64,000 bases of DNA from Massalongia carnosa (Eukaryota), in NCBI GenBank assembly GCA_965645245.1, contig OZ287086.1, forward strand, positions 186,001 to 250,000. Direction: 5' to 3'. Of the stretch, positions 17,250 to 58,034 are shown piece by piece (positions within the stretch are counted from its first letter, which is position 1; every line of letters begins with the position of its first letter). The position numbers were made by a program, and so were the translations under genes. The notes beneath the pieces were generated by a model. The model searched no databases and was not told where the DNA came from. It saw only the letters and a program-made list of their open reading frames with translations.

Positions 17250-19221
17250 ACTAATAATAACCCAACTGCTCCTGAACATCATCCTCGTCGCTGTCGTCGA
17301 CATCGTCGCCTACTTTCTCTTCCATTTCAAAGGCAACGAAGTCTTTTTTGTGACGAAACGAGATAGTGAATAGATTTCTACCATTGCGCCACCTGTCCTC
17401 CAGACCAAAAGGCACAATACTTAGTCCGCAGACCAAGCTCTATTCTAATATAACTGGGACTCCTGCTATGTTCGCTGTAGGTCCTGCCGTCCGCACCACG
17501 CTTGGTCGAACCGTTACATTTTTGTAGACGAATAGAATCACCTTCACCTATAAATTGTAGATTTTGATCACCAATAGTATCCATGATAAAGATAGTCTCT
17601 GTCTCTTCCTCTTCATCATTGAATATATGAGTATCTTTTACTCCTTTCTTCGTCTGTTTTTTGGTCTATTCCGTCTGCCTAGTAATGTCGCTCGCCTTCC
17701 AAATGGCCTCACCTCGCGAAGTAGTCGTTGTCTCGAAATGCCTCACTCGGTCAGTCCAGCACTTTACAAATCTCTGACGAAAAGAAATGTAGGTGGCATT
17801 AAGATACTTCACCAAATCAGCATGTCTACGATTGTATGTGATTCGAAACTGTCCCCACATCTCTTCAAAATTCGGCTCGGAATCAGCCTTAATAAGTGAT
17901 TTCCATCGTCCGTAAAAGACTTCCCATGCCTCAGTACTGAACGATTTCTTGCAATGAGCTAGGACATTCTTATTGATGTGCCAGATACACAATAAATGAC
18001 TGGTAGATGGAAAAATCAGCTCAATTACTGACATCAAACCTCTATCCATGTCGGTGACTGTCGTCGTTGGAGAAGGAAGTTCTAGCTGCGAGTACAAGAC
18101 TTTCAAACGAGTCATGGCCCAGATGTAAGACTCATTTGTCTCCTCATGCATGAAGCAGAAGGCTACATAGAACGTAGTATGCAATGCGGTCTGTCCGCCG
18201 ATGATCAACAAAGGCATTTTGAATCTGTTGGTTTTGTAGGTGCAATCCATCACTAAAACTTCCGGATTTGCCTTCAAAAGAGTCTGAGTACTGCATTTAC
18301 TGAAAAAAAGATTGACGATCTGATTGGTTCTCATCATTAGTCTGCAACTTCAGTTGTCCTGTCCTTGTCAAACTCACCTGATTCTCATCATTTGTCTGCA
18401 ACTCGTATACCCAGTCGCCCTTGTCAAACTCCTGAATCAGACTCTGTATCGGAGTCAATGAGCCCAAAGCATTTCGTCGCAATTGAGCTCGAAAGTTGTA
18501 GATGTGTCGACTGATAAACATCGGATTGACGACTTCAGGATTGCCATTCTCATCCCATCTGACCGAATTCGGAGTCGGAGCTCCAATACGAAGACTCGAC
18601 AGCACGTTGGCCGGTTTGGTTTGTACAGTCAATTGACGAGAAATCTCCTCCTTATGCTCGATCGAGGCGATTCTTCGATGCGCGGGATGTGCTCCACTCA
18701 AGCTAGCTTCATGATTATGTTCCGGTTTGACTACTTCCAAATGCCAGGCAACGTCATTCACGAAGGTAGCGATGCAGGAAATGGGACACTCAATTCATCT
18801 ACTGCTACTGTGACGTCGTTCTTCGCCTTGCGGTCTGGCCTTGCGACCTCGATCGCAGATGATCCACGCTTTTCGACGAATTCCCAGCTTTTATTTCTTG
18901 GTACGATGCAGGACAACGGCGTATCCCTCAGGGCCGGCATGTCGATTCAGGCAGAATAGACAGTCTTCTAGAGTTTCGAAAGACTGCCGTCGGCGGGAGG
19001 TAATAGAGGCATGATTGATCCAATATGTAGGATCAGGAAACTGAAAATTGAGATGAGAAAATGAAGAATTTACGTCACTTATCCTGATCGAGGAAGATGG
19101 CTTCCTAATGAGGTTTAGGGAGGGGTCCAGCCCTACCCCTAGAATTTTTTTGTGTGGGGTGTCTAGATAGCCGGAAAGGGTGTGTCTAGGTAGCGGATGG
19201 GGTGTCCATATATCAGTACCC
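17250..19221 (-). mobile_element. Degenerate MULE (Mutator) transposon
   Basis: HNH, MDCTYKTNRFKMPL, TDMDRGL, LLCIWHI and TTSRGE motifs; start near 19012 resembles the MULE at 61800; repeat-rich end at about 19120-19221; partner TIR not found. Confidence 0.88.
17349..17518 (-). repeat. Solo LTR family C (TRIM LTR) inside the MULE
   Basis: TGTGAC...GTTACA, TSD TTTTT. Confidence 0.93.
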
Positions 19222-27926: not shown

Positions 27927-28200
27927 TGTTGAAAGAGCTATATGAATATGGCTCAATGGCTATGTAATAATAAAGGTATGTATGACCGTTATGTTAAAGA
28001 TGAAGAGTTGCTAGGCAGCAATCTTTTCCTATTAGTGGTCACCCTCTTCTAAGCGAGGTGATCTTATCTTATCTTGGGACTAAGCCTAATGCGGCATCTA
28101 CGGTTTCCGTAGATGATCTGTCCATCTAGGGCAGCCGTAGGTGCTATGTTCATCGTACTGATAGTTGTTCATTGTGCTGGTAGGAATTGGATATTCAACA
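27927..28200 (-). repeat. Solo LTR family B (274 bp)
   Basis: TGTTGAA...TTCAACA, TSD AATGA. Confidence 0.93.
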
Positions 28201-28206
28201 AATGAT

Positions 28207-28777
28207 TGTAACGGTTCGACCAAGCGTGGTGCGGACGGCAGGACCTACAGCGAACATAGCAGGAGTCCCAGTTATAGTAGAATAGAGTTTAGTCTGCGGA
28301 CTAAGTATTGTGCCTTTTGGTCGGGAAGGACAGGTGGCGTAATGGTAGAAATCTATTCACTATCTCGCTTCGTCATAGAATACTTAGTCATCAATCGGTG
28401 TACCAGTCGTGAGTTCGATTCCTGACCTGAGTTCCTCGCTTTTTCGCCTTGCTTCGACGGACTAAAGCTAGGACGAAACGGGAAAGCGTTGGATGAAAAC
28501 TCTCTAAGTCGGATCGGCGAGGGCAGTACGCTAAGAAGAGCCCATTCTTCGGGGCTAACTATAACTGGAAGCGGCTAGGGGCTAGCCGCAGCTAGACGGG
28601 CGGTAGTGTATCGGTTCGACCAAGCGTGGTGCGGACGGCAGGACCTACAGCGAACATAGCAGAAGTCCCAGTTATTGTAGAATAGAGCTTGGTCTGCGGA
28701 CTAAGTATAGTGCCTTTTGGTCGGGAAGGAAAGGTGGCGCAATGGTAGAAATCTATTCACTATCTCGCTTCGTCACA
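28207..28777 (+). mobile_element. TRIM: two 171-bp family C LTRs (28207-28377, 28607-28777) around a 229-bp non-coding interior
   Basis: Direct repeats, TSD ATGAT, purine-rich tract before the 3' LTR; second copy at 40214-40784. Confidence 0.95.
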
Positions 28778-28912
28778 ATGATGATTGCTTGCATTTTTAA
28801 AAAGAATATTTCAAAATTATCTAAATATGTTGCAATGCTAAAAGAACTTCGATTAATATATTATTCGAGTTACATATCGCTTACTGCTTGATTATTAAAT
28901 TAACTGATATAT

Positions 28913-39738: not shown

Positions 39739-40213
39739 TAATAGATTGCGTGCTGGGGGCGACGATGAGGTTGAAGGTGAAACAGAAGGTGAAACAAATT
39801 GTAAAATTCACGATGTTGCAATGTTATTGCGCTCGGGTCGGCTAATATTGGGTACAATAGGTTTAGGAGAAAAATTAGTTATGGAGAGAATTGAAAATGC
39901 GTCTATCCTCTCCGACGACGACGACGAGGTGCAGTATATAAGCACTCAGCCCATTCTCGGCCGCTCTATGGATCCTATGTTTCCTTCGGATGACGAAAAT
40001 GATATTATTCTTACATCAGAAGCATGGTCGGATTCGCTCGAAGATATTGACGATGTGCTTGCCAAGCATAGTCAAAAAGCCCTACCTCAGGCAGCGCCGG
40101 CTCCATCTCTTTATAGTCTTAGCCAAAACGTGCGCGCCAGTCAAATTCTCCCTACTTCCTCTGCAACAACGCGAAGGTCTCGGGGTGTGGCGAAGAAATC
40201 TAAGGCTCAGTTG

Positions 40214-40784
40214 TGTGACGAAGCGAGATAGTGAATAGATTTCTACCATTGCGCCACCTGTCCTTCCCGACCAAAAGGCACAATACTTAGTCCGCAGACC
40301 AAGCTCTATTCTACTATAACTGGGACTCCTGCTATGTTCGCTGTAGGTCCTGCCGTCCGCACCACGCTTGGTCGAACCGTTACACTACCGCCCGTCTAGC
40401 TGCGGCTAGCCCCTAGCCGCTTCCAGTTATAGTTAGCCCCGAAGAATGGGCTCTTCTTAGCGTACTGCCCTCGCCGATCCGACTTAGAGAGTTTTCATCC
40501 AACGCTTTCCCGTTTCGTCCTAGCTTCAGTCCGTCGAAGCAAGGCGAAAAAGCGAGGAACTCAGGTCAGGAATCGAACTCACGACTGGTACACCGATTGA
40601 TGACTAAGTATTCTATGACGAAGCGAGATAGTGAATAGATTTCTACCATTGCGCCACCTGTCCTTCCCGACCAAAAGGCACAATACTTAGTCCGCAGACC
40701 AAGCTCTATTCTACTATAACTGGGACTCCTGCTATGTTCGCTGTAGGTCCTGCCGTCCGCACCACGCTTGGTCGAACTGTTACA
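40214..40784 (-). mobile_element. TRIM copy 2 (571 bp)
   Basis: Near-identical reverse complement of 28207-28777; TSD AGTTG. Confidence 0.95.
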
Positions 40785-41299
40785 AGTTGGAGTTGGAATC
40801 TCAGCAAAGAGTCGAGAAATCAGTCAAACAGGCTAGAACTCAAGTGAGAAAGGTGGCCAAAACCATGAAGCCTAGAAAAGATGATGTATCGCAATTGGCT
40901 GACGAGTTTTTGGAGTTGAAGTCATCGCAATAGCTAGATTTGTAGGTGTTGAATACACTTAGTCACTAATAGCAACATTATTAATACGTAGTGTAACTGC
41001 TAGCTTGTACGCACCCTGGATGAGTAGTAAAATGGCGACTGTCCCTAAGAATCTCGTTGCTTTTAGATATGGCACCGAAGACTCCGCGCAAGCGTACGAG
41101 CAAACCTGCGCGAATTCCAAACCGAACACTCGACAGAATACCCGGACCAGGTGCCAGAACTGGTGCGATAAGAAAACCAACCACCAGGAAGAGTATGCCT
41201 GGTGGTAAGTAGATGGTATAGTTGAGAATACATAAGATACTAACGCCGATCGCCACGTTGATAAGTCAAGGTTATTGATTACCATTACTAAGCATGTGA

Positions 41300-45000: not shown

Positions 45001-46807
45001 GCTTAACGTGTTAGGAATAGATAGATTGCGCCAGGGTTCCTGAGTTGCGATAATTTCATAGTCTTGAGTATTCGGATCGGCTAAGAGGGGTAACATTGTA
45101 CTCACTCTGTTATTTCTGACAATGTACTGCAATATGGAGAGAGATTTCGTGTCCCTCATAGGACGTCCATTGATTCGGCCTGGGCGGTCGAGGGGTCGTT
45201 GGTGGTGTTGTTTACTCTGATTATCGCCGGGGCAGTAGATACAGCTCGGGGTCTGAGTGGGGGTCTACCTACAACTGGTTTTGCAAGGGTCTTTGTCATG
45301 TTTTCTGGATTCATGATGCCCGTGTCAGCCCAGGATGGTCCTGTTCGTGGGGGATTCGGGGGGATATCGGAGGAGGGTGCGGTTTTCCTCTTTTTGCTGT
45401 TTGTGCTGCCAAGGACCGGGTTGATGTTTTCGCTCTGGAACCTGATCGAGGCCGGTACGGTGGCAACTAGTGGGTAGAATAGGACCCGTTTTTGCATAGA
45501 CCTCTCTGCTTTGCGTTTTTCGGCTTTCCTGATTTCGCAGGATGTTGACCAGGCTTCGTGCCCCTTTTCACTGCATGCTTCACATCTTCGTTATCTGCCT
45601 GTTGTTTCCATATTGCATTCGGTGCTAGGATGAGCCCCAGCACAGTGACCGCAGACAGTGGGGTTGGGACATGATCGACCTATATGATGTAATACGGATG
45701 GCGCTAGAGGGATACGTGATCGCCTATGGCGGTTGCGGGATTAACTAGCGTGGACCATGCCGTAGTACGAAGTCGCATAAGCCGTCGAGGCTAACACACT
45801 GCCATCTTGCCCCGAAACTTCGGAGTTATTGTTATCACGTTCTTGACTACTTACAGATCAAACACCTGTCGAGGCCGTGGTGGTAGATTGCCATGGAGTG
45901 TAAGGCGGACTCCTGTGGAGACGCCAAGGAACTCTATATGGGATCTACTGGCCTACTCGGAGCTACTGGATCTCTTGATGGTTCAAGAGAGGTAGCAGGA
46001 GGCACGGCTCGCTGGACGCAGCTTGAGCTAGGCTCCCCGGTGTAAACTTCAGCTTCAACCTTTATTACTACGTTGGTAGTGATGTCGGCTGAATGAACCT
46101 ACATGACCTCGTTGTCTAGACCTTGTGTTTAGAGGCAGGTCCGCAGTGTAGCGAGGTATTCAGTCGGAGGTAACCTTCCATCACTAGGTAGTGGTGACGG
46201 CGAAATGAAGCTACATAGCCTGAGGCATGTAGTGAGGGATCTAGCCGGGGGTAGAATTGTTCTACCTTGCAAGGGAAGGTCTAGAAGGCTGCTCGAGGCT
46301 GACTAGATGATCCAGCGAACGCCGAGTTCGTGGATGGATCCTGAGGGATGGTTGGATGTAATGCGATAAAGTCGGATGTGGATTGCAAGGCTGTAATGCT
46401 CGCAAGACTCCCAAGGCTTGCAAGGCTCCTAAGGTTCCAAGGCTCCCAAGGCTATAGGCTTGGGGTGAGTAGGATAAATATCAGAACGAATCTTGTAGTA
46501 TTCGTTAGCAATTAGTCTTTATTCTATGAACAACCTACGTTTGGGTCTCGGACGAGATCTCTTGGTCTAAGCACTTCCACATCCATTAGTTCTTTGGATC
46601 ACGTAAACTCTCGGAGACTAGCACGTAGTAGCTATCTTCCTCCTCTCACGCTGAGCATTTCCCCTTTCGAGATCAGTGTCGCTCGTGATAAGCTTACTGG
46701 TCTCGTAGCCCATTACAATTCTAATTGCTCTCATACCCTACGGGTCAGCCAGCCCGTTTGGAGGAAGCTTAGCTAGTGGAGCCATCTGTTCTTGAACTCC
46801 GCAAACG

Positions 46808-47959
46808 ATGTCTTCAAGCTCTCGCCCTCGCAGGAACGTTCGGCAAGGTCCAACAAGATCTCCCCAGGCAGAAGATACTTCAAGGCCTGCGGAAGAGACA
46901 CCGGCACCAAGCACTGAGGAAGCTACGGGCCCTGCCATATACACCGAGGAAGATCTGCAGCGAATCACAAAGCTCTGCATGGAGTCGTTCCTCCAGGGAC
47001 AAGGCAGTCGACATGAAGGCCCCCGAGAAGGTCAGTTGAAAGCTCGGTTCCCGGATCTCTACTATGGGAAGTCCCATATGGAGTGTTACCATTTCTGCCA
47101 ACAATGCGAAGACCACTTTGACACCGCCGGCGCCACTGGGTCTAACCGTACCCCCTTTGCCGCATCTTTCCTTCGTGGCCGGATTAGCTTTCGTTGGCAC
47201 CAGCACAAACGTCGAAGCCAAGGCGAAGAGGTAGGACCTTTGTCTTGGATCGAGTTCAAGGCTTTCCTTCGGAAGAATCTTGGAGACTCCAGGGCTTTTG
47301 TGGACGCAACCTGGAGTAGGATCAAGCGGGACTCACAGTATCAACAAGAAGAAGTTCAGGATTGGGCTTCTCACCTGGAACATCTGCAATCGATACTCCT
47401 GGAATTTGATGCTGAGGGAGCTCCAGAGGAGTCGGACCTTATTCGGTACTTTCGTGAAGGCCTCAAGCCTTCGATAAAGGCCCAGATGGAACAACGAGGA
47501 AGGGAACTAGACAGTTGGGAGGAGCTGGTCGAAAAAGCGATCGATGCTGAGGCAAAAGCTAGCCTGCAGCCGCAATCGATCCTTCGTGAGATGGATCAGC
47601 GCTGTCCACATGGAAACCGGCCCGCTCATGCCACTGTGGCCAAACCCCAGACCTCTACTCGAGACCCTCGAGACGAGCCTAGCGAAAAGCCCAAACCGTC
47701 GGGTCCGAAGCAATTAAACTCCTCGCGCCCAGAGAACAGCGAGATTGCTGACAAGAAAGCTCGGAGAGAAAAGAAAAGGCAGCGACGTCTTGATCAAGCT
47801 CGAGATCGGAAAGGCTCGGAGTCCACTCCGGCCACCGGTGCCAACACTTCCAGCGGCACCAGCAAGGACTTGTCCCAAATCACCTGCTTCAACTGCAACA
47901 AGAAGGGACACTACTCAAGTACTTGTCGCGAGTCCAAGAAGGACGCCTCAAAAAACTAG
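46808..47959 (+). CDS. gag: Gag (383 aa) with CCHC zinc knuckle
   Basis: Intact ORF; FREGLKPSIK and CFNCNKKGHYSSTC. Confidence 0.93.
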   Translation: MSSSSRPRRNVRQGPTRSPQAEDTSRPAEETPAPSTEEATGPAIYTEEDLQRITKLCMESFLQGQGSRHEGPREGQLKARFPDLYYGKSHMECYHFCQQCEDHFDTAGATGSNRTPFAASFLRGRISFRWHQHKRRSQGEEVGPLSWIEFKAFLRKNLGDSRAFVDATWSRIKRDSQYQQEEVQDWASHLEHLQSILLEFDAEGAPEESDLIRYFREGLKPSIKAQMEQRGRELDSWEELVEKAIDAEAKASLQPQSILREMDQRCPHGNRPAHATVAKPQTSTRDPRDEPSEKPKPSGPKQLNSSRPENSEIADKKARREKKRQRRLDQARDRKGSESTPATGANTSSGTSKDLSQITCFNCNKKGHYSSTCRESKKDASKN

Positions 47960-50345
47960 TATCGGTCTTGGCAACCTCCGTGCCTCCGACTGAAACTAGT
48001 AAGGAGGCTAATCTTGAGCGGGTTCCTTGTATTCGATATCCGGTCCGTTTGAGGAAGGATCAAGACGAGGTAGAAGCTTTGATAGATTCCGGCAGCGAGG
48101 TCAATGCAATGCACCCCGCTTATGCCGCGAAACTAGGGCTTCGTGTTAGGGAAACAGATGTTGGGGCGCAGAAGATTGATGGATCTCACCTGGATACCTT
48201 CGGTATGGTTATCGCAGGGTTCTCGGTCGAGGATAAGCTAGGGAAGGTTCGATTCTTCCAGGAAACCTTCTTGTTGGCTAATATTAGCCTGGAGGTGGTC
48301 CTGGGAATGCCTTTTCTTACACTCAGCAGTGTGGATATACGGTTTCTAGAGCGAGAGCTTGCCTGGAGAACTTACACAGCTGCCGAGGCTTTACCAACAA
48401 CCAGACGTGTGGAGATCATCGATAAGGAAGAGTTCGCGGAGACGGTCCTTGGAGGAGACGATGAGGCATATGTGGTGCATGTAATGGCCGTAAGCAAGCC
48501 ATCGTCCATGCCGATCCACGCCTCTCGCCAGGCCCAAGTAGCCTCGCTAGTGAGCGAGGAGGCCAATATCCCCGTTGAATATTCCGACTTCTCTGACGTT
48601 TTCTCCCCTGACTCTGCAGCGGAACTACCGGAGCACACCGGCTTTAACGACCATCCTATCGATCTAGTAGATGGTAAGCAGCCACCTTATGGCCCAATCT
48701 ACAGCCTAGGTCCTATGGAACTAGAGACACTGAAAACCTATATTGAAACCAACCTAGCCAGCGGTTTTATTAGGCCTTCTCAATCTCCGGCTGGTGCTCC
48801 TATACTGTTCATCCGCAAAAAGGACGGTAGTCTCCGCCTGTGTGTGGATTATCGAGGACTCAATACCCTGACAATCAAGAATCGGTACCCGTTGCCCTTG
48901 ATTGGAGAGTCGCTTGATCGACTAGGCCGTGCCAAGCGATTTACGCAGCTAGATCTCACGAACGCGTATCATCGGATGCGAATTCGAGAGGGTGATGAAT
49001 GGAAGACAGCCTTTAGGACTCGATATGGTCACTTCGAGTATCAGGTTATGCCCTTCGGCCTTTCCAATGCCCCAGCTAGTTTCCAGGGCTATATCAACAA
49101 AATTCTAGCAGAGAAACTCGACGTCTTTGTCATCGTATACTTAGATGACATCCTGATCTATACCGAGGACGTAGGTCAAGGCCATGTTGAGGCTGTTAAG
49201 TGGGTCTTGGAGAACCTCCGAAAAAACGGACTTTTTGCCAATCTAAAGAAGTGTCGTTTTCATCAAGATGAGGTTCGCTTCCTAGGCTACGTTGTCTCTG
49301 GCCAAGGAATTCGTATGGAAGAGGAAAGGATTGAAGCTGTCACGAACTGGCCAGAACCCAAGTCAGTACGAGGCGTCCAGGTGTTTATGGGATTCGCCAA
49401 CTTCTACCGGCGGTTCATCCGGGGGTTCAGCAAGATTGCTGCTCCACTCACCTCAATGCTCAAAACGAACTTGGTCGCCAACACTGGGCCATCCCCAAAG
49501 GCGAGGCGCGGAGCGGAAGAATCTTGTTTCCTAACTCCTGCCGCTAAGTTAGCCTTTGCCCAATTAAAGCAGGCGTTCACTGAAGCACCGATCCTCCGAC
49601 ATTTTGACCCTGAGCGCCACATCCGACTTGAGACGGACGCCTCGGGTTACGCCATAGGTGGCGTTCTTAGCCAGCTGGATATCGAAACCGGCCAATGGCA
49701 CCCAGTAGCGTATTTTTCTCGGAAAATGATTCCTGCGGAAACTCGTTACGAAACTCACGATGAGGAACTACTGGCCATCGTTGAAGCCTTTAAGAATTGG
49801 AGGCATTATCTCGAAGGTTGTAAGCATGAAGTTCTCGTGCTTACAGACCACAACAACCTGCGGCGATTTATGGATACGAAGAGTTTAAGCCCCCGCCGGG
49901 TTCGCTGGGCGCAAGAACTCTCTCGTTACAATTTCCGCATCGATTATCGTCAAAGCAAGGCTAATGGAGCTGCCGATGCTTTATCTCGCTATCCTCAGAG
50001 GAGCCAAGGCGAAGAGGAAGTGCTTCGAGCTGAGAATACTCGAATCCTTCACCGATTGCAGTCCTCACTGACCAGCGCCAGCATCTCTGGTATCACTAGT
50101 ACTCAGCATCTCACCCCTCCACACCACGTCATCATCTGCGGAACGCACGTCTTCCCTCAACTACGTCAGTTTTGGGATACGCTCCGCCAAGACTTGACCT
50201 CTGAAGGTCCTTACAAAGTCAGCATTGGTGGCATGAGGTTGAGGTTGCAGGAGTTGCAAGAGGAAGATACCCAAGCTCAGATGATTAGAGCAGAGAAGCT
50301 TGGAAAAGATGGCTGGGAAGACACCGATGGGATTTTGCATTATCA
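47950..50345 (+). CDS. pol: Pol (protease, RT, RNase H) in the -1 frame, intact up to the integrase deletion
   Basis: LIDSGS, LCVDYRGLN, YLDDILIY, LETDASG and ADALSR motifs; AAAAAAC heptamer just before the gag TAG. Confidence 0.93.
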
Positions 50346-50810
50346 AAGCAAGCCTACAAGCTGGAGCTTCCAAAGCGGTGGCGCATCCATGATGTCATTC
50401 ATGTATCACTGCTGGAGCAGGACACCACAAGGAAGGGGCGGGTGGACGAGAAGATCGCGGAGCAGCTGGAATTCGAAGCTGGTAACGATGAGGAGTACGA
50501 GGTTGAAGGCATTTTGGATAGCGCGGTCTACGCCAAGGAGTCAGAAGCTGGCCACCTACCAGGCCTCTACTATCTGGTCTCCTGTAAGGGCTATCCAGAG
50601 GATGAAAGTACGTGGGAACCGGCGGCAGCGATCAAACACTTACGGAAGATCGTCAAAGCCTACCATGAGGGTAACCCCACCAAGCCGACAGCAACCTCTC
50701 CTCCTATTGACACCGCACCGCCAATGGCTAAGCCGGCCGTTAAGCCTCAAGGCAAGAGGAAACGCGGCCGACAAGCTACCAGCACTCGGAGCAAGAAGGC
50801 GAAGAAGTAG
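50346..50810 (+). pseudogene. Out-of-frame integrase C-terminus and chromodomain
   Basis: KQAYKLELPKRWRIHDVIHVSLLE...EEYEVEGILDS..YYLVSCKGYPEDESTWEP. Confidence 0.9.
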
Positions 50811-53699
50811 TAGCCTAGGGGTTTCTCTCCTGCCACTTGCTATGGAATCTAGGATCGGTTTTCCCTTCGTTTTCCCGTTATCTTATCAGGGTTTAAGGGT
50901 TTTTCATCGATCTTGAGAAGTCGGTTTTCCCTACGTTCTCCCGTTGTCTTATCAGGGTTTTAGGGTTTTTCATCGATTTCGATAAATTGGGTTTTCCTCC
51001 TCAGTTCCCACTGGGTTAGGAGGTTTTTCATTGACTTCGGAGGCCGGTTTTCCTCCTTGCTATCATACAAGGAAGGAGGTTTTTCACCGCCTGCCATACA
51101 TATCATACCACCCACCTAACGTGTCGTTATTATCCAGTACACGCTCGGCGGAGCTCGCGTCCTAGAGGGGAGGCAATTGTAATACGGATGGCGCTAGAGG
51201 GATACGTGATCGCCTATGGCGGTTGCGGGATTAACTAGCGTGGACCATGCCGTAGTACGAAGTCGCATAAGCCGTCGAGGCTAACACACTGCCATCTTGC
51301 CCCGAAACTTCGGAGTTATTGTTATCACGTTCTTGACTACTTACAGATCAAACACCTGTCGAGGCCGTGGTGGTAGATTGCCATGGAGTGTAAGGCGGAC
51401 TCCTGTGGAGACGCCAAGGAACTCTATATGGGATCTACTGGCCTACTCGGAGCTACTGGATCTCTTGATGGTTCAAGAGAGGTAGCAGGAGGCACGGCTC
51501 GCTGGACGCAGCTTGAGCTAGGCTCCCCGGTGTAAACTTCAGCTTCAACCTTTATTACTACGTTGGTAGTGATGTCGGCTGAATGAACCTACATGACCTC
51601 GTTGTCTAGACCTTGTGTTTAGAGGCAGGTCCGCAGTGTAGCGAGGTATTCAGTCGGAGGTAACCTTCCATCACTAGGTAGTGGTGACGGCGAAATGAAG
51701 CTACATAGCCTGAGGCATGTAGTGAGGGATCTAGCCGGGGGTAGAATTGTTCTACCTTGCAAGGGAAGGTCTAGAAGGCTGCTCGAGGCTGACTAGATGA
51801 TCCAGCGAACGCCGAGTTCGTGGATGGATCCTGAGGGATGGTTGGATGTAATGCGATAAAGTCGGATGTGGATTGCAAGGCTGTAATGCTCGCAAGACTC
51901 CCAAGGCTTGCAAGGCTCCTAAGGTTCCAAGGCTCCCAAGGCTATAGGCTTGGGGTGAGTAGGATAAATATCAGAACGAATCTTGTAGTATTCGTTAGCA
52001 ATTAGTCTTTATTCTATGAACAACCTACGTTTGGGTCTCGGACGAGATCTCTTGGTCTAAGCACTTCCACATCCATTAGTTCTTTGGATCACGTAAACTC
52101 TCGGAGACTAGCACGTAGTAGCTATCTTCCTCCTCTCACGCTGAGCATTTCCCCTTTCGAGATCAGTGTCGCTCGTGATAAGCTTACTGGTCTCGTAGCC
52201 CATTACATATGACCATATTTGTGACAATTAAAACATTGCGTCATGGTGCATCCCTTTGTGAATCTTTTACAGTCTTTGATTTCATAGTCGATTATGAGAC
52301 CCTCGGCTATGATCCGCTTGGCCGTTTCGGCGGTGGCGACTTCCATATGTAGCGTGGAGAACGCCTTCTTTTCCCTTATAGCCCTGGTGGACCTGGCTAT
52401 TTTCTTTATCTGCAGGTCTGGGTGCAGGCGTGCGTTAGCGGTCTGCAGGTACCATATGGCCTGCGATTGGTTGGCGGTTTTGATGTGTTCCATCTTGATA
52501 CCATTTACTCTGACCGAGTATGTCCGTTTCTTAATCGCCGGTGAGTCGGCTATTTTTCGGGTCCATTCCGACTTTTCTTGTAGAGTCTTTTTGACTTCTA
52601 GTGATTCAGTGTGAATTTTGAGATCTCCGCTAATGAGTCGCGAAACTCCCCGTATCCCCTCCGTTTCTGCTTGTAGTGTCTCCACGAGATCTTTTGTGGG
52701 CATGTTCTTTATTTTTTCCTTGTCGCTTGCGCTGGAAATGACTACGGTCATTGCTCTGGCCTGTCGAACTTCTTATGGTGAAGGTTCGGTTTGTTTTGAA
52801 GAAGTGATTGGCTTGGTGCGGCGGAGAATCGGGGGGGCCTCGGAGGCTTGACCTCTGGTTGCGGCTGCGGAATAGCGGTTTGTGGTTGTTGTGGCTGTCT
52901 TAGCAGTTTCGATACGGGCTAGACTTCTTTGTATTTCTGTCAGGGTGTCGTGAATGGGCTTCGAAATGTTTTCGTTGTCGTTGTCGATGCTTCTCTGATT
53001 ATCGAGAAAAATTTTCACCTCCTCTAGAATCCCTGTTCCCTCCGGTTCCCCTCCGTCTCCTATATCTATCAGATAGTCATCTATCTTGTACAGCAGTTGA
53101 TCTCTCTGCTTCGCGTACGCGATCACGAACGGGTTTTCGAGTTGAATGTTCATCGCGTCCTCCGTATCTCTTCCCCGGCTTTCTTGACATATATTCTTGT
53201 TTGATCATTCAGTTTTTCCTCCGTTCCTCAAATTCAATACTGGCGGAGTTGCATGTTAAGTTAGGTAATCGTTTTCGCTTTATGTCCGGCCCAGCAATGA
53301 TATCTATGGAGATCTGAGAGATCAGAGGATGGGTTGAAGTAGAGACTGAGTTTATTGAACTACTGAGCTCGATAGAGCAGAATATATAGCTCAAATGATA
53401 ACTAAGTACACATGTGAAAGGGGACATACATAGGACATGTGAAAGGGGACATGTCGAGTGCATGTGATTGAACATTTGAAAGAGTGAGATTATTCCGGCT
53501 GATAATATCGTTTCTGTTTTTGGTCCTTTTCTTCCGGTTGACGCTGTTCCTTAATACAATCGTCACACGTACGATGACCAGGTTTACGTATGATGCATAG
53601 TTTTCGCTGTAGACCACGACCGAAATATATCTCATAAGAAAATCGTACTCTCTTCCAGTCATTGAGCTAATATATATGTCTTTTTTCCCAAGCCCAGGC

Positions 53700-57863: not shown

Positions 57864-58034
57864 TGTAACGGTTCGACCAAGTGTGGTGCGGACGGCAGGA
57901 CCTACAGCGAACATAGCAGGAGTCCCAGTTATAGTAGAATAGAGCTTGGTCTGCGGACTAAGTATTGTGCCTTTTGGTCGGGAAGGACAGGTGGCGCAAT
58001 GGTAGAAATCCATTCACTATCTCGCTTAGTCACA
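57864..58034 (+). repeat. Solo LTR family C
   Basis: TGTAAC...GTCACA, TSD ATCCC. Confidence 0.93.

Follow-up and report, generated by a model that had tools for sequence, protein, structure and literature searches.

Self-priming of reverse transcription is expected for the Tf1/sushi chromoviruses (accessible parts of bioRxiv 10.1101/2022.12.06.519325, PMC7175516 and PMC4600332). This is the Ty3/Gypsy group used here for comparison, and it includes Tf1, Tf2, Tj1, Tosmo1-3 and Tcry1 as well as MAGGY, skippy, Cft-1, Boty and Afut1. In Tf1, RNase H cuts between bases 11 and 12 according to the accessible part of PMC7175516. Canonical TRIMs, found in plants, ants, cestodes and bivalves, are shorter than 1 kb, have two LTRs, a PBS and a PPT, and lack an ORF; the accessible text of PMC6934838 defines them by a tRNA-complementary PBS. 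For bivalve TRIMs, the accessible descriptions give no clear PBS and propose no mechanism. In the accessible text of PMC6934838 and PMC5445492, self-priming is mentioned only for autonomous elements.

Two kinds of TRIM carry promoter motifs derived from small RNAs. Cassandra, confined to plants, has a 5S-derived type-1 promoter that lies wholly within the LTR, and its PBS is of the tRNA type (TGGTATCAGAGC; accessible part of PMC7215508). Helenus/TRIMp3 elements (Kojima 2024; accessible parts of PMC10886601) are shorter than 1 kb, combine an A and a B box with a decayed tRNA fold, produce target-site duplications (TSDs) of 5 bp and are primed by a host tRNA. As far as those parts go, the fungal Helenus are Copia-linked and come from Pucciniales and Agaricomycetes, each LTR holds both boxes (Helenus-1_AmAr and Helenus-1/2_CCin in the supplement), the PBS of Helenus-1_AmAr is TGG-type, and the author found the tRNA-like part and the PBS not to be complementary to each other.

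The window analysed here is a 64,000-nt stretch of the Massalongia carnosa genome (contig OZ287086.1, positions 186,001 to 250,000). It is rich in transposons, namely Ty3 elements (one with a chromodomain), Copia, LINE and DNA-transposon remains. At 28207-28777 on the plus strand it contains a 571-bp element composed of two 171-bp LTRs and a 229-bp interior, with the TSD ATGAT on both flanks. Like canonical TRIMs, this element is shorter than 1 kb, with LTRs in the 100-250 bp range, a PBS and a PPT. Its longest ATG-started ORF is just 27 aa, in agreement with its first-pass annotation as a non-coding TRIM. It shares with Tf1 an 11-nt complementarity between a sequence inside the LTR and a PBS just past the 5' LTR, and with the Tf1/sushi group as a whole the 5-bp TSD and the TG..CA ends. 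With a probability of about 0.85, it represents a recently active non-autonomous TRIM that replicates like Tf1 and carries a decayed tRNA-gene unit around its priming site. The features are as follows.

28202-28206, plus strand: 5' target-site duplication ATGAT
28207-28377, plus strand: 5' LTR, 171 bp, TG...CATA in window copy 1 and CACA in most copies
28272-28276, plus strand: TTATA, a weak TATA-like motif (TATAGTAG) opening a block kept in a diverged LTR
28299-28309, plus strand: predicted self-primer and RNA 5' end, GACTAAGTATT
28315-28318, plus strand: T4 run, missing from the diverged LTR
28319-28327, plus strand: LTR side of a 9-bp helix that may form with 28419-28427; weak (p=0.045)
28335-28345, plus strand: tRNA-type A box, TGGCGCAATGG in most copies and TGGCGTAATGG in window copy 1
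28379-28389, plus strand: PBS AATACTTAGTC, complement of the self-primer
28406-28421, plus strand: 16-nt identity to the T arm of host tRNA-Met, holding the B box GTTCGATTC at 28413-28421
28440-28444, plus strand: T5 run, positioned like a tRNA-gene terminator
28539-28556, plus strand: small hairpin AGCCC...GGGCT
28571-28589, plus strand: 8-bp perfect hairpin GCGGCTAG-GGG-CTAGCCGC
28591-28606, plus strand: purine-rich tract ending GGGCGGTAG, predicted plus-strand primer
28607-28777, plus strand: 3' LTR, 171 bp, TG...CA
28778-28782, plus strand: 3' target-site duplication ATGAT
40214-40784, minus strand: second full-length copy, TSD AGTTG (read on the plus strand)
Parts of the second copy, minus strand: primer 40682-40692, A box 40646-40656, PBS 40602-40612, B box 40570-40578
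17349-17518, minus strand: solo LTR, TSD AAAAA
29415-29585, minus strand: solo LTR, TSD TTCAA
57101-57271, plus strand: solo LTR, 5' end decayed, TSD imperfect
57864-58034, plus strand: solo LTR, TSD ATCCC

All coordinates first given for the two 571-bp insertions, with TSDs ATGAT and AGTTG, hold, and the four solo LTRs reported for the 64 kb were recovered, three of them with an exact 5-bp TSD. The two full-length copies differ at 10 of 571 positions. Copy 1 sits in another repeat (27927-28201), which recurs near the window start (1779-2257). For copy 2, a contig of run X4 joins 40208 to 40785 and skips 576 bases, i.e., 571+5; the flank is multicopy, so this junction is uninformative on polymorphism. 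In both window copies the 5' LTR ends in CATA and the 3' LTR in CACA (28376 and 40615), and this T is present in five of the best 30 genome copies. A CATA ending is not expected to pass through normal replication; it may stem from a CpA mutation common to both copies or from gene conversion between neighbours. The purine tract before the 3' LTR, GCTAGACGGGCGGTAG, contains 12 purines in 16 positions. Both interior hairpins named in the first-pass annotation are present, and their proposed role as packaging signals has no support beyond this presence. A perfect stem of at least 8 bp is seen in 76 of 3,000 shuffles, but the folding energy of the whole interior is ordinary (33 of 300 shuffles fold equally well).

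The genome search covered 52 Mb on 25 contigs. Near-full-length matches were found in all 40 candidates scored, out of 466. Of the best 30 copies, 25 are flanked by an exact 5-bp TSD, and in 12 the two LTRs are identical. Exact-pattern searches returned at least 57 LTR/PBS junctions, on 20 contigs, and at least 56 PPT/LTR junctions; at least 268 LTRs were counted by LTR 23-mer matches, and at least 75 B-box blocks with up to one mismatch allowed. Judged by these copies, the TRIM family is young and recently active. C-to-T changes affect 99 of 1727 CpA sites versus 55 of 3124 CpG sites, a count in which inherited variants enter more than once, and this CpA bias may hint at weak RIP and at an ascomycete genome. 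Several copies are nested in LTRs of Ty3 families, and several adjacent matches form a tandem array of the TRIM with shared LTRs (L026 region, G000:C9:713069-714277). At two different loci (L037 and L048), unrelated LTR elements share one 5-bp insertion site in the interior of the TRIM (element positions 245-249), a possible hotspot at the base of a hairpin.

The predicted self-primer GACTAAGTATT (28299-28309) is exactly complementary to the PBS AATACTTAGTC (28379-28389), which starts one base past the LTR end, as the first-pass annotation had stated; the TTATA that it placed upstream is located at 28272-28276, though it makes a weak TATA. Only three of 20,000 dinucleotide shuffles of the LTR contain a complement of that length (p about 1.5e-4). 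In predicted transcripts, the primer/PBS duplex dominates the fold, with pairing probabilities of 0.70-0.91 per position. For the side duplexes of the Tf1 pretzel, one test gave weak values (p=0.72 and 0.57), and a second returned one 9-bp helix at p=0.045, with mixed results for autonomous controls (4/7 at p<0.05); a three-duplex pretzel is only weakly supported for the TRIM. The TRIM departs from the Tf1/sushi group in being non-coding and in showing no helper to which its sequence links it. Conservation of primer, PBS and boxes inside the family is unusable as support, since 20 of the loci were chosen by exact PBS match. Among 67 distinct copies of this very young family, 49 have a perfect duplex and 18 a changed one, none with a compensatory primer/PBS change. 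No primer/PBS variants occur among the matches listed from four contig runs, which belong to the same family throughout, and the searches yielded no diverged full-length relative for a covariation comparison.

Self-priming is the norm for Ty3 elements of this genome: of nine Ty3 families with clean ends, seven show an exact self-complement of 8-11 nt that lies 2-3 nt past the LTR, and a tenth family has one of 11 nt. A Ty3 element in the window (45688-52207) has identical 1030-bp LTRs, the TSD TATGA and a 9-nt self-primer; at 6520 bp, compared with about 7520 bp in two other copies, it is internally deleted. Since seven of the nine families are self-primed locally, self-priming of the TRIM is to be expected. 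The Tf1-type mechanism put forward in the first-pass annotation is therefore supported, while the surprise attached to it is smaller than implied.

The alternative would be a tRNA-primed TRIM using a tRNA 3' end or an anticodon half, as in Copia-carried fungal Helenus, with the LTR complement being incidental. Most fungal Helenus use tRNA halves and have 5-bp TSDs according to the accessible parts of PMC10886601, and Copia elements are present in the window. The junction, however, contains no TGG, as first noted, and no complement to the PBS longer than 7 nt exists among 30 host tRNA gene models, a set that includes tRNA-Met(CAT) and Asp, was drawn from 63 scored candidates, 31 of them nuclear Rfam matches, and is incomplete, which leaves this alternative some room. 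The Ile-TAT and Arg-TCT tRNA genes, found later, have no complement to the PBS either. The two 7-nt exact matches among the 30 models fall downstream of the PBS. A match to a host tRNA 3' end or half, which would have spoken against self-priming, was thus not found in this set. Together with the low chance probability of a perfect 11-nt self-complement, the retention of the primer block in a diverged LTR and the aberrant junctions at the primer (both described below), this makes tRNA priming very improbable. Tf1-like self-priming of the element is well supported by its sequence.

The RNA 5' end predicted for a self-primed element can be compared with three genome copies (L231, L232/L090 and L230) that are inverted at primer and PBS. 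L231 (L231:373-1239; G000:C7:2359172-2360038) is a perfect 867-bp palindromic insertion of the TRIM with identical 402-nt arms (element positions 170-571) and a spacer corresponding to element positions 107-169. It has U5 ends on both sides, a direct TSD (CAAAA), flanks that are not palindromic, and a junction without U3, the copied part extending to position 105-107. L232/L090 has the same junction without a matching TSD, so that a TSD is verified in one of the three copies; the junction shared by L231 and L232 has the spacer G on both arms. In L230 the joint falls inside positions 93-104; a nested element has cost this copy its right end. In its simplest reading, L231 would be minus-strand DNA that was copied to the RNA end, folded back, extended and integrated. 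The L231 and L232 junctions at positions 105-107 are compatible with an RNase H-cut end, and the aberrant copies support an RNA 5' end, intact or cut, within element positions 93-107 (28299-28313).

Inverted junctions do not always mark the RNA end, since L235, the fourth of the aberrant copies, has its fold-back point at 149/167 and not at the primer. This break coincides with another small palindrome, and the 11-bp inverted repeat, with its 69-nt loop, could plausibly serve for recombination or fork switching at the DNA level, a process that would make the inverted copies uninformative on the RNA start. The L230 junction is what a simple inversion predicts. L231, on the other hand, is bounded exactly by U5 termini, with a direct TSD and non-palindromic flanks, its arms are identical and its junction lacks U3, while the spacer G on both arms of the L231/L232 junction differs from a plain inversion. 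A DNA-level origin of these copies is for these reasons considered unlikely.

In the reading favoured here, RNA would start at or near 28299 and its first 11 nt would pair with the PBS. The RT-RNase H of a helper Ty3/chromovirus would cut off these 11 nt, thereby producing the minus-strand primer, the purine tract would prime the plus strand, and the helper integrase would insert the cDNA with a 5-bp duplication. The exact start site, the primer cleavage and the Ty3 helper are the parts that we infer, the helper from the priming mode and the purine tract.

A search for an autonomous element with the same LTR, across 22 PBS junctions outside the top 40 copies and 11 orphan PPT junctions, found none; these loci are TRIM copies, fragments, or TRIMs split by nested insertions with their own LTRs. 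Similarity searches over 20 Ty3 loci from 150 SH3_Tf2-1 matches and three others gave no helper, blastn returning only an overlap artefact, and local alignments between the TRIM and 10 families all had p values of 0.07 or more. At the termini, the U5 end of the L148 family matches best (11/12), and the purine tract matches that of the L149 family at 9 of 12 positions. A resemblance to the TRIM in U5 end, purine tract or geometry makes the L148, L149 and L230-nested families leads only. The TRIM primer is also near-complementary to the self-primer of the autonomous L149 family (ATGCTTAGTC), with 9/10 positions paired plus one G-U pair.

The first-pass annotation, supported as to the self-primer, overlooked a tRNA-type A box, a B box and a T5 run in the region of the priming site. 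The A box lies at 28335 in the LTR, where 14 nt of copy 2 are identical to positions 8-21 of host tRNA-Arg(CCT). The B box (28413; element position 207) lies in the interior, within 16 nt identical to host tRNA-Met from position 48. Among 20,000 shuffles, the 16-nt tRNA identity recurs in 2, the 14-nt identity in 71 and an ordered A..B pair in 65. At 78, the spacing from A to B falls inside the host tRNA range of 43-127 (29/30 models). In the tRNA register, acceptor-stem pairs 4-7 hold, the T stem is decayed and no D stem is seen by inspection, and the LTR end and PBS occupy the place of the anticodon arm. The split tRNA boxes are real. In the genome, the A..B-box pattern has 55 matches, 51 in the TRIM family and four others, one of them a tRNA-Ile gene; this pattern search found no second A..B-box TRIM family. 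The three matches in a metagenome scan are GC-rich, resemble bacterial coding sequence and have neither LTR nor tRNA.

The conservation of the boxes can be followed in a diverged solo LTR with its own TSD (L171, G000:C4:793200-794500), which is 152 bp long and single-copy among the 40 scored candidates. Its TATA-primer block is retained at 40 of 41 positions, its A-box block at all 22 and its U5 end at all 16; it has changed in U3 (39/63) and in the spacer between primer and A box (3/20). By inspection, the replaced spacer is still pairable with the same interior stretch after the B box. This pattern, which rests on one LTR, is what selection on the A box would give.

One alternative takes the boxes for chance motifs or for the inert remnant of a captured tRNA gene or SINE, in an ordinary Pol II self-primed TRIM. 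The element has no Rfam or covariance-model tRNA match, its only Rfam match being a chance one to U4 (E=6.6), its T stem is decayed and no D stem is seen, and the two best identities belong to different tRNAs. Within the family, moreover, the A box mutates like its neighbours (20 of 477 non-CpG differences). Chance is made improbable by the shuffles, given the low counts for the 16-nt identity and the ordered pair and the exact register at tRNA positions 8 and 48. The intact A-box block in an LTR whose adjoining spacer was replaced argues against an inert relic, as do boxes that outlast their decayed stems, a pattern that Kojima takes as promoter retention in Helenus (accessible parts of PMC10886601). 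An inert relic comes close to even odds without reaching them, and so does some working role of the boxes, be it in a short RNA, as a TFIIIC insulator or in read-through. The relic alternative and the preferred reading agree on self-priming.

A Pol III-driven TRIM of the TRIMp3 type would use TFIIIC on the split A and B boxes, aided by the TATA motif, start at the primer and read through T5, and its split promoter would restrict transcription to the 5' LTRs of intact copies. The consensus A and B boxes are ordered and spaced as in host tRNA genes, and such a pair at tRNA spacing is absent from the Ty3 families with clean ends in this genome, setting the TRIM apart from local autonomous elements. 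The precise start required by self-priming would also suit Pol III, and Cassandra is a validated Pol III TRIM (accessible parts of PMC10886601). Counted from the primer start, the A box is at +27 in the diverged LTR, its block there being unchanged, and at +37 in the main family. The latter distance is farther than usual for the A box of a tRNA gene and thus counts against this alternative. Pol III can pass the T4 at 28315-28318, since T4 runs lie inside 5/29 host tRNA bodies. T5 is found in 0/29, and the first three T runs downstream of host tRNA genes never exceed T5 in 16/29; from this host pattern, the T5 at 28440, 19 nt past the B box, is expected to stop Pol III about 146 nt from the primer start. 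The aberrant copies, furthermore, need an RNA that reaches position 107 or farther upstream, at the edge of a tRNA-like start. A Pol III-driven TRIM is hence unlikely, and the genomic RNA is probably not made by Pol III, or only inefficiently.

In the preferred reading, the decayed tRNA-gene unit, with the A box in the LTR and the B box and T5 inside, would exist in full only where a full-length copy has its 5' LTR, and is probably kept for TFIIIC binding, the full-length RNA coming more likely from Pol II than from Pol III. The element may also stand for a recurring class of fungal TRIMs that join tRNA-free self-priming with a Pol III promoter split across the LTR/PBS boundary, although such a class is rather doubtful. 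Only the 5' LTR of an intact copy would then be a working promoter, and hundreds of solo LTRs would be silent. Starting from the primer, Pol III would make either genomic RNA by read-through or an RNA of ~146 nt (primer-R-U5-PBS) ending at T5. This short RNA would serve as its own primer and hand minus-strand strong-stop DNA over to a long template of separate origin; no such scheme of replication with two RNAs was found in the literature searched.

Compared with the systems described above, the element fits the structural TRIM definition save for the tRNA primer, most likely works like Tf1 and is not a Helenus. It resembles Helenus/TRIMp3 in its size, A and B boxes, decayed tRNA fold, 5-bp TSD and fungal host, and its boxes, above chance and in register, qualify as the small-RNA-derived promoter motifs of TRIMp3. 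In contrast to Helenus, as described in the accessible parts of PMC10886601, only the A box is in the LTR while the B box is interior, the pair straddling the LTR end and PBS, and priming is most likely by a self-complement; no host tRNA primer match exists in the 30 models, an incomplete set, which also separates the element from canonical TRIMs. Like Cassandra, it is a non-autonomous LTR element with small-RNA promoter motifs through which it may use Pol III, and a short terminal redundancy set by start and stop inside the LTRs is conceivable, as in Cassandra; its boxes are, however, split and tRNA-type. No described self-primed TRIM was found in the literature searched, whose scope excluded Repbase and most subscription papers.

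The host tRNA genes show features of their own. Few nuclear genes were recovered, mostly one per anticodon, and several have long introns of 40-76 nt. The tRNA-Arg (ACG) gene (L106:57-108; G000:C1:3481420-3481670, plus strand) has a 52-nt insert in the D arm, and the tRNA-Arg (TCT) gene (L178; G000:C5:454800-455100, minus strand, positions 111-159 of the reverse complement) one of 49 nt. Both inserts start with GTAAG, end with TAG and contain a branch-like motif (ACTAAC and CTGAT, respectively); upon their removal, each gene folds as a canonical tRNA of 72-73 nt. These inserts look like spliceosomal introns in tRNA genes, of which the literature searched, including the accessible part of PMC13149111, holds no report.

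With this TRIM, self-primed reverse transcription of the Tf1 type gains a natural minimal substrate of 571 bp, and copies in the genome preserve strand-transfer errors that would locate the RNA end. Because a self-primer needs no match, a non-autonomous element of this kind can depend on a helper with which it has neither primer nor LTR nor interior sequence in common. The proposal that tRNA-box TRIMs use Pol III becomes testable here by two small mutations. If the split boxes work, they would extend the TRIMp3 idea to a Ty3-linked, tRNA-independent form in which the promoter exists only in intact copies.
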